Positions 1,484 through 3,120 of a DNA stretch of 64,000 bases are shown in pieces. The notes under the pieces were generated by a model. It was not told the DNA's origin. It did not search any database and saw nothing but the letters and a program-made list of their open reading frames with translations. The stretch lies in the sequence record PP925835.1; one strand, written 5' to 3'. Each line of letters begins with the position of its first letter. Position 1 is the stretch's first letter. A program made the translations under genes and the position numbers. This DNA is from Escherichia phage Nernie.

Positions 1484-1982
1484 CTATTACAAGAACAGTA
1501 ACATAGAAACATCATTAATGGAGGAATTAGTATAGGATTTCCCTATCAATTATTCTATATATACCTATTATTTTTAACACACCCCTTTGTACATAATATA
1601 GACAAATAAATATCTATGCCACAAAAATTTTCTGGTATACCCGATTTATTTCGACACACCCCCTTTTCATAAACGTAAAGTCAATAATATCAATAACTTG
1701 CCGCAAAATACTGCTCGCTTGCGAGAGGTGCTTAACGCGATTTTCAGCGCCCCCGATTTCTGCCGACCGTCCCCCTCAAATATCAATGAGAATAATTATC
1801 ATTTGCATTATCATTCAATGACTTATAAGACTTTTGATTATTTTCTGAGCAAGAAAGGTACTACTCACAACAAAACAGATAAATTCTAAGTAAATCAATG
1901 GCTTGGCAAGTCTAAACATCTATATACACCTTGCCAAATGAAATGATCTGGCGTGAAATAGTGCCACCCGTGGAAGATAGCT

Positions 1983-2001
1983 GATAATGATTATCATTTG
2001 C
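1983..2001. promoter_or_regulatory. Fur-box-like palindrome GATAATGATTATCATTTGC
   Basis: Matches the Fur box consensus GATAATGATAATCATTATC at 16 of 19 positions; core AATGAT-N-ATCATT is a perfect dyad. Confidence 0.45.
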
Positions 2002-2502
2002 ATACTTTCTGTACTATAAAACCGACTAAAAATCAAGATAATTCTGATTTATTGCGCTTTTAAGAAAGTAGGCTCAACAAATAGTAAGTTATATGGGGCA
2101 ATAGTATGAAAAATCATCTATTCAGATAAAAATAACTTTGCGCAATAGTAGTAATATTTTTCTTGACAAGAAAGATTTCTTTGTGTTCACATAGCGCCCC
2201 CTGGAGGGTGGCGCATTATGATCATCAGTATTATTCTTCCCTATGTTTATTATATGCAGCTTATATTATAGCCAATGTTCTAAACATTAGCTAATAATAA
2301 CGCATCGCAACAATGTAAGGGATACAATATACCATGTATATTGTTGCGCTTGCAATTGTTGCAAGCTACATAAGCACAAATAATAACTATCGGTGATGGT
2401 TATTATGTGGGGTGTGTAGTTGCGTTATTATTAGCCGCCTATGTGTCCGGCATAGGCTGCTAATGATACGCTTGCGAATTATATTTCTTGTTATAGTTAT
2501 TG

Positions 2503-2550
2503 TATGAAATGATTACTATATGGAATGATTACTGTATGAAATGGTTATTT
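2503..2550. repeat. three tandem ~16-bp direct repeats
   Basis: tgaaatgattact / tggaatgattact / tgaaatggttatt in series; contains the AATGATT half-site. Confidence 0.5.
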
Positions 2551-2650
2551 AGATAATAAATAGGAAGGTAAAGATTAGATCATAAATAGATAGGATATTA
2601 ATTATTTAGTAATGTTACTAACAATTTAATAGTTACTTTGTGCAACAATT

Positions 2651-2695
2651 AGATAGATTATAGTTATAGTTTTAAAGGTTAGATAGATTATAGTT
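2651..2695. repeat. direct repeat agatagattatagtta x2
   Basis: Two copies 29 bp apart, with a related copy (ggttagatggtcataagtta) near 2823. Confidence 0.5.
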
Positions 2696-2842
2696 AGCTT
2701 AATAATGATTTATATTAGTTATTGTTGTTTAATATAAGGTTATCAATGAGATAGTAACAGTAAGTTATAAATAAAGGTGAAATAGTTAGCTTTAATTTAG
2801 TTAGATAACTTATTATTTTATAGGTTAGATGGTCATAAGTTA

Positions 2843-2861
2843 AGAATGATTATCATTATTG
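2843..2861. promoter_or_regulatory. Fur-box-like palindrome
   Basis: AGAATGATTATCATTATTG, same AATGAT-N-ATCATT core; a further copy lies at 2900-2917 and a degenerate one at 1788-1806. Confidence 0.4.
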
Positions 2862-3120
2862 CATTATGCAGTTTATTGCATAGATAATCAGCTATAAATA
2901 AGAATGATTATCATTTAAGAGGAAAGATGAGAAAAAGGCTGTTTTTGCCAGATAGTTGCATGAAGAAATTAAAAATAAGCGGTCTAAAACACGCTGTAAG
3001 CGCCTTATGATCTTCATGGTATGGTTGTTCATCTGCTCCTTGATTAGCTCGATACCGCGATCTATTCACTTTTTTCGGTGAACGTTTTTGATAGGTAAAA
3101 GCTATCATCTTTATTTAGGT

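Follow-up and report, generated by a model that had tools for sequence, protein, structure and literature searches.

In Escherichia coli (E. coli) the metal sensor Fur binds clusters of sites such as those at iucA (aerobactin), fepA-fes, fhuF, ryhB, and gpmA, which overlap the σ70 promoters of iron-related genes; footprinted clusters consist of sites that overlap at an offset of 6 (or 3) bp (PMC2189734). Arrays that share with these clusters the 9-1-9 grammar AATGATAAT-N-ATTATCATT, the range of scores, the 6-bp phasing, and the length of 25-110 bp occur in Escherichia phage Nernie (PP925835.1), of which a stretch of 64,000 nucleotides, referred to here as the window, was analyzed; unlike the E. 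coli clusters, the phage arrays lie in the terminal repeat and in long untranslated DNA. On the strength of this grammar the palindromes of the phage are predicted to be genuine host-Fur binding-site arrays (we infer occupancy by Fur, since it is the sequence that supports binding), which places a familiar operator grammar in a new structural setting. The reading tentatively preferred here is that they serve as cis-acting architectural or boundary elements and not as the operator of a particular gene.

On Shiga-toxin phages the stx1 cargo is controlled through a Fur box. The sitABCD boxes of lambdoid coliphages (PMC6969025) resemble the present arrays in lying on phage-borne DNA with host Fur as the reader, but they form a single operator before a cargo operon, whereas the arrays considered here occupy the non-coding terminal DNA of lytic phages and are found subfamily-wide. 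No report of Fur-box arrays in the ends of lytic phages was found in the literature covered (subscription literature lay outside the search), in which phage boxes are operators of temperate cargo. A host factor within a terminal element is familiar from lambda cosB, where IHF sites lie inside the packaging signal. As in cosB, sites for a host protein are interleaved here with phage-specific repeats in a terminal cis-element, but IHF bends DNA and is no metal sensor.

The injection-stop region of phage T5 (Repeat Region 3; palindromes E, G, and I; direct repeats C and D) is also comparable: it is untranslated, lies beside direct repeats, contains Fur boxes, and lies at 7.9% of the genome, as one of the phage arrays lies 7.9% from the end. 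T5 differs in having a 10.1-kb repeat and a proven two-step DNA entry, whereas the family of the window has a 342-bp repeat. The literature on the T5 stop region speaks of 'repeats and palindromes', with DnaA as the sole proposed host factor and no mention of Fur or iron, and papers on the subfamily of the window mention terminal repeats but not Fur. The DnaA boxes invoked in a proposal for the T5 stop region (bioRxiv 10.1101/866236) have no counterpart in the box-bearing gaps of the window, and DnaA boxes are not enriched in the window as a whole.

The window comes from a phi92-like coliphage of the genus Justusliebigvirus (subfamily Stephanstirmvirinae), a group of myoviruses with genomes of ~147 kb, and positions 1400-3200 are 93-95.5% identical to ~50 Escherichia phages of this genus. 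An earlier note on this DNA had described Fur-box-like palindromes in a non-coding gap on the left (1484-3162, 1.68 kb; the flanking genes are all on the minus strand), counting at least four copies of the 13-mer AATGATNATCATT. The palindromes are confirmed and are extended by a second cluster, cluster C, which the earlier note did not contain (Table 1). Three copies of the 13-mer are exact (1986-1998, 2845-2857, and 2903-2915), but the fourth, AATAATTATCATT at 1791-1803, has one mismatch; five more copies with one mismatch lie beyond the span first reported, at 14127-14215 in another non-coding gap. Chance would give the window 0.57 matches to the 13-mer; it holds 9, a count not attained in any of 100 shuffles. 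The 19-mer GATAATGATTATCATTTGC at 1983-2001 agrees with the Fur consensus at 16 of 19 positions on the plus strand, as had been stated, and at 17 of 19 on the minus strand (GCAAATGATAATCATTATC); all consensus matches of at least 15 of 19 in the 64 kb are confined to the two clusters.

Sites were scored with a symmetrized 19-bp Fur matrix built from 16 E. coli K-12 sites verified by footprinting or gel shift, with site coordinates from Chen et al. 2007 (PMC2189734) and promoter sequences from NC_000913.3. The matrix reproduces published strengths (gpmA, 28.0 versus 27.4 bits; ryhB, 25.7 versus 25.2 bits) and, when run over 25.8 kb of E. coli DNA, flags nothing but known Fur sites at 15 bits or more. 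For real E. coli sites the scores range over 11.6-28.0 bits (gpmA being the best), with a leave-one-out median of 20.6 bits; the 13 sites of the window score 13.2-28.0 bits, six of them (21.6-28.0) exceed that median, and the top phage score equals that of the best E. coli site. At a cutoff of 18 bits the window has nine sites where 0.2 would be expected, a count that none of 100 dinucleotide-preserving shuffles reached, and all nine are confined to two non-coding gaps; within the gap at 1484-3162 there are five against 0.04 expected (0 of 200 shuffles), and no shuffle of either gap attains the observed count. When scored against shuffled controls, as the earlier note had proposed, the boxes stand far above sequence of matched composition and equal the strongest validated E. 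coli sites.

The best Fur register lies 3-6 bp off the 13-mer, which is itself the overlap of 9-1-9 sites phased by 6 bp; overlapping pairs 6 bp apart are centered at 1794/1800, 1989/1995, 2848/2854, 14130/14136, 14154/14160, 14183/14189, and 14206/14212. The phage boxes also share variants with E. coli, having GAGAAT or GATAAT and a flanking GCAAAT hexamer as in fepA, fhuF, tonB, and cir. CRP, FNR, SlmA, Zur, and ArgR were rejected as readers on half-site sequence and spacing, as judged by eye.

Table 1. Fur boxes of the window and the features around them; scores in bits from the Fur matrix.
Feature	Position	Strand	Remarks
First gene of left arm	ends 1483	-	other (right-hand) neighbor of the gap is the GP30.8-like gene
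Direct terminal repeat, 342 bp	1733-2074	-	one copy in window; at both ends of virion DNA
Fur-box group 1	1785-1809		centers 1794 (28.0) and 1800 (18.3), 6 bp apart
Fur-box group 2	1980-2004		centers 1989 (17.7) and 1995 (18.5)
Non-coding DNA, ~1 kb, last early gene to terminal repeat	2075-3128		
Fur-box group 3	2839-2863		centers 2848 (18.7) and 2854 (13.2)
Fur box 4	2897-2915		center 2906 (25.7)
Intrinsic terminator of last early gene (GP30.8-like)	3129-3147	-	
GP30.8-like gene, last early gene	3163-3546	-	encodes a GP30.8-like protein
Early module	3906-13463	-	~25 strong σ70 promoter matches, most with perfect TTGACA
Open reading frame (ORF) of 88 amino acids	13575-13841	+	opposite strand to all neighbors; phrog_19316
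Promoter match TTGACA-N17-TATACT	13844-13872	+	sole strong plus-strand match of early region
Second Fur-box cluster (cluster C)	14104-14221		six centers: 14113 (22.9), 14130 (21.6), 14154 (16.9), 14160 (13.8), 14183 (28.0), 14206 (26.0)
Three direct repeats, ~63 nt each	14235-14439		adjoin cluster C

Groups 1 and 2 are placed inside the terminal repeat because the annotated 343-bp repeats of Salmonella phage UAB_1 (same genus; two identical copies) map to 1733-2074, aligning with it end to end; as the window holds one copy, its repeat assignment rests on this homology. The records of phages BME3, PD06, and PHB05 begin or end at window position 1734 or 2075, and PhageTerm gives a 342-bp repeat for BME3 (PMC12210895). 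Group 1 is 61-67 bp from the edge at 1733; group 2, which has a perfect 7-1-7 unit (TGATAATCATTATCA) within the 19-mer at 1983-2001, is 79-85 bp from the edge at 2074. Boxes 3 and 4 are ~770-830 bp outside the repeat, with box 4 lying transcriptionally downstream of the last early gene, ~220 bp past its terminator. In the complete 147.8-kb genome of UAB_1, three loci, namely the repeat (two copies), the adjacent box pair, and the second cluster, hold 15 of the 17 sites of at least 15 bits and all sites of at least 17 bits.

Repeated elements of other kinds are present in the same DNA. A 25-nt repeat (CCCGATTT..CGAC....CCCCCT) occurs three times (1563-1587, 1640-1664, and 1752-1776), straddling the repeat edge at 1733, and its third copy abuts Fur box 1; these copies are possibly a terminase or end-recognition repeat. 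The center of the terminal repeat has a perfect 9-bp inverted repeat with a 19-nt spacer (CTTGGCAAG ... CTTGCCAAG, 1909-1945), of which phage KKP 3954 keeps the first arm only. Further to the right, the non-coding DNA contains a row of five to six hairpins (~2260-2470), including a perfect 15-nt inverted repeat (2290-2304/2421-2435), followed at 2480-2830 by short AT-rich direct repeats (TTAGATAGATTATAGTTA twice, and three copies spaced by 16 bp at ~2497-2547); the segment 2260-2830, between the terminal repeat and boxes 3 and 4, looks like an origin or packaging element.

Between cluster C and the end that bears the repeat lie 11.6-11.7 kb, or 7.9% of the genome. The core of the adjoining direct repeats, TATTTAAAGTTTTT on the minus strand, recurs in the equivalent repeats of the related contig L029 and, with small changes, in KKP 3954; this core and AAGGGGTGTG were both rejected as general phage promoters, since the window is not enriched for either. 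In the complete UAB_1 genome, 16 promoters with a perfect TTGACA, at 137,156-145,879, sit between cluster C (136,053-136,146) and boxes 4 and 3 (146,594 and 146,652), and the remainder of that genome has 0-5 such promoters per 5 kb per strand. As the promoters fall between them in the window and in UAB_1, cluster C and boxes 3 and 4 bracket the early block. The promoter run of the window is unusually dense, with one promoter before almost every small early gene. The single strong plus-strand match at 13844-13872 is oriented toward cluster C; the same DNA is also a hairpin followed by T residues, situated after the 88-amino-acid ORF. The match opens a non-coding block (13844-14100) that is nearly invariant among the window, L029, and KKP 3954 and contains G+C-rich hairpins; Rfam gave no match for this block, which could be an RNA or DNA element. 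The gene just upstream of cluster C (14655-15206, minus strand) encodes a NADAR-domain protein (Pfam E = 1.5e-36).

The arrays are retained in more distant phages. KKP 3954, a Phapecoctavirus with ~72-75% identity to the window over the parts of the region that still align, has a terminal repeat of 309 bp that contains boxes of 28.0 and 23.7 bits at 58 and 72 bp, respectively, from the edges. It also has an equivalent of box 4 (21.0 bits), a degenerate group 3, and, 7.8% from the end at 11,615-11,702, a cluster of four boxes. The sequence of box 1 is AATGAGAATAATTATCATT in both the window and KKP 3954 but AATGAGAATCATTCTCATT in Klebsiella phage FKP3; in all three phages the box scores 27-28 bits and keeps its distance from the repeat edge, and the 27.0-bit box of FKP3 has a different internal sequence. 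Box 4 is conserved in the distant relative L022 (21.0 bits) and in FKP3 (18.0-18.2 bits), and group 3 is kept in L022 (19.2 bits). Cluster C is rearranged yet retained in L029, where its homologue scores 21.5, 27.0, 15.9, and 22.9 bits, and in KKP 3954. Relatives from IMG/VR with flanking proteins 56-78% identical and DNA of 43-44% G+C have boxes of 20-27 bits in the same gaps. Between genera the arrays shift register and swap hexamers while their Fur scores stay high, which is the signature of selection for binding and not for a fixed sequence; because of these shifts, identity between genera inside versus outside the boxes is uninformative. In the FKP3 record (PP895363.1, 1-1000), the first ~500 bp stand in tandem, which puts second copies of the boxes at 49 and 219 at positions 549 and 719; the duplication is probably an artefact created when the terminal repeat was assembled.

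The same boxes are found in T5 (AY587007.1), where the annotated palindromes E, G, and I/direct repeat C at 9473-9631 score 22.7, 28.0, and 22.7 bits as Fur boxes, and a partner in phase (18.2 bits) lies at 9627; the middle box is identical to the box at 14183 of the window (19-mer AATGAGAATCATTATCATT). The T5 boxes lie within the terminal repeat in a 1.66-kb untranslated region between the convergent genes ORF017 (plus strand) and ORF018 (minus strand), adjoin the direct-repeat array, and are no more than 140 bp from the calculated shear point of first-step transfer (9618) and the major nick at 7.9%. Four T5-like contigs (L042, L053, L133, and L136) have four to five strong boxes each. A scan of IMG/VR for exact 9-1-9 boxes (AATGAKAATNATTMTCATT; loci L031-L150) returned dense arrays of 20-29 bits on many unrelated viral contigs, including L031 and L055 (52-53% G+C), L054 (21% G+C, 10 sites), L090, L115, and L135 (related to Pectobacterium and rV5-like phages), and the T5-like Salmonella phage SP01. 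Exact boxes within 350 bp of IMG/VR contig ends number 22 against 7.2 expected, an enrichment of ~3-fold. On one uncultivated 41-kb contig (L085) the first 301 bp contain (GAGAAT)x8 and four strong boxes, 2.4 kb from a match to the terminase large subunit.

Chance resemblance in AT-rich repetitive DNA, for example through functionless slippage of hexamers, is effectively refuted: the gaps are AT-rich (29-31% G+C) and (GAGAAT)x8 runs exist in one metagenomic contig, but no dinucleotide-preserving shuffle reaches the counts, and the positions are conserved, also at 43-44% G+C. Classical operators, at which Fur would repress phage promoters at or beside the boxes so that some RNAs are made only at low iron, are unlikely. 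The candidate transcripts would be one on the plus strand starting between boxes 3 and 4 (TTGCAT at 2859, an 18-nt spacer, and GATAAT ending at 2888) and running into 2920-3128, and others crossing cluster C. Operators would fit the precedents of E. coli, in which 303 of 363 clusters overlap a promoter (PMC2189734), and of temperate phages, whose Fur boxes control cargo genes such as sitABCD (PMC6969025); moreover, boxes 3 and 4 flank the weak promoter-like site at approximately -47 and +11 when read by eye, a non-coding block conserved across genera (2920-3128) follows box 4, and the strong promoter match at 13844-13872 is directed at cluster C. The anatomy argues against an operator for a gene or small RNA, however, because no conserved promoter, ORF, or RNA structure accompanies the boxes. 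No σ70 promoter match of at least 10 of 12 positions is present in 1300-3300, and the weaker promoter-like matches of the gap are at the level of shuffles (12 versus 12.2 expected). Across the genera compared, no conserved -35/-10 pair overlapping any box was found, and the candidates drawn by eye, including the -35 and -10 elements given above, are not conserved in KKP 3954 or L022. The earlier statement that the gap has no convincing ORF agrees with the careful annotation of phage Paula, which has no coding sequence there. The sole gap ORF with a good ribosome-binding site (2927-3010, 27 amino acids, directly after box 4) loses its ATG in inny, UAB_1, and L019 and was rejected as a Fur-controlled small protein. 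A Fur-controlled small RNA in 2895-3128 was likewise rejected: the sequence is conserved, but the RNAalifold covariation term is unfavorable (+0.84), and Rfam searches at gathering and permissive thresholds found nothing credible in either gap. No iron-related gene adjoins the boxes. With two groups inside a terminal repeat that has no promoter conserved across genera, an unconserved 27-amino-acid ORF, and T5 boxes between convergent genes, the proposal of iron-responsive control of phage genes by Fur finds no support in the anatomy, and gene control is not the best reading of the boxes.

High-copy cloned Fur boxes derepress the Fur regulon, which is the principle of the Fur titration assay (FURTA), and replicating phage boxes could in the same way titrate Fur as a decoy, derepressing iron uptake, Suf, and RyhB to the benefit of iron-dependent ribonucleotide reductases. 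Consistent with such titration, the virion DNA carries 15 or more sites that reach 15 bits, and the phage encodes class Ia and class III ribonucleotide reductases. It is nonetheless improbable: a decoy needs no fixed positions, yet the distances from the repeat edges and the end are kept across genera, and T5, which has the same boxes, destroys host DNA within minutes (bioRxiv 10.64898/2026.04.02.716235), so that derepression of the host is impossible as their role there. That the boxes are operators for a phage-encoded protein with a Fur-box-like site is highly improbable. The candidate would be the 88-amino-acid protein, whose gene is divergent and 260 bp from cluster C, whose N-terminal third resembles a helix-turn-helix by eye, and which is 93-99% identical across genera while the flanking genes are far more diverged. 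The protein has no known domain and is absent from T5-like phages, and its AlphaFold model (five helices, predicted local distance difference test score 94) has no significant neighbor in the PDB; with neither a domain nor a structural match, it was rejected as the box binder. A tblastn search for a phage-encoded Fur gave no match, which is a weak test, and the first-step-transfer proteins of T5 have no tblastn match in the phi92-like family. The suggestion in the earlier note that a phage regulator might mimic a Fur box is accordingly disfavored, as unrelated T5 has the same boxes and neither a shared first-step-transfer homologue nor a Fur homologue was found. Host Fur would be the most economical common reader, because T5 shares the boxes in the absence of shared first-step-transfer homologues or the 88-amino-acid protein.

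An architectural or boundary role for genuine host-Fur sites is tentatively favored over these explanations because of the fixed distances of the boxes from the repeat edges and the end, the adjoining direct repeats, and the recurrence in T5; in two genera the boxes are roughly symmetric inside both repeat edges. When the cell is replete with iron, Fur dimers carrying Fe2+ would load onto the overlapping sites phased by 6 bp and form nucleoprotein blocks at set positions along the phage DNA. Each edge of the 342-bp repeat would have such a block 60-85 bp inside it, giving four per virion DNA because the repeat at both ends carries one per edge; others would form at the box pair just beyond the terminator of the last early gene and at cluster C, at the head of the early-promoter module. 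By analogy with the IHF sites of lambda cos, these would be host-factor sites beside phage-specific direct repeats. We infer for the boxes an architectural function in which the blocks may serve DNA transactions of the ends, such as packaging or the processing of the ends and perhaps also DNA entry in stages, and may insulate the end regions from early transcription; the steps of end processing, packaging, or entry would then become sensitive to the iron status of the cell.

Several considerations weigh against an architectural role. We know of no precedent for Fur acting in this way. The three loci may not share one function, and a role in packaging fails for cluster C because it lies 11.7 kb from the end; the match of 7.9% to the length of first-step transfer in T5 may reflect shared gene order within the subfamily. 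A dependence on iron would put the phage at a disadvantage in hosts that are poor in it. Promoters for a phage-modified RNA polymerase are invisible to a σ70 scan, so a regulatory role could be missed, and the enrichment of boxes at contig ends is confounded because assemblies break at repeats.

It is also conceivable, though quite unlikely, that Fur is the long-sought host factor that reads the terminal cis-elements of virulent phages with terminal repeats, with the arrays marking a pause in DNA entry and/or the repeat edges measured by terminase. For entry, the arrays would constitute the injection stop signal of T5, and an equivalent stop would lie 7.9% from the end in phi92-like phages. 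If this is true, the progress of an infection would be gated by the iron status of the cell.

If Fur binds these arrays, a host metal sensor would be built into the physical handling of the phage chromosome. Phage success, and phage therapy based on this widely used family, would then be linked to how much iron is available, which is a dominant variable in the gut and during infection. What the injection-stop palindromes of T5 do, a question 50 years old, becomes cheaply and directly testable through Fur and iron.

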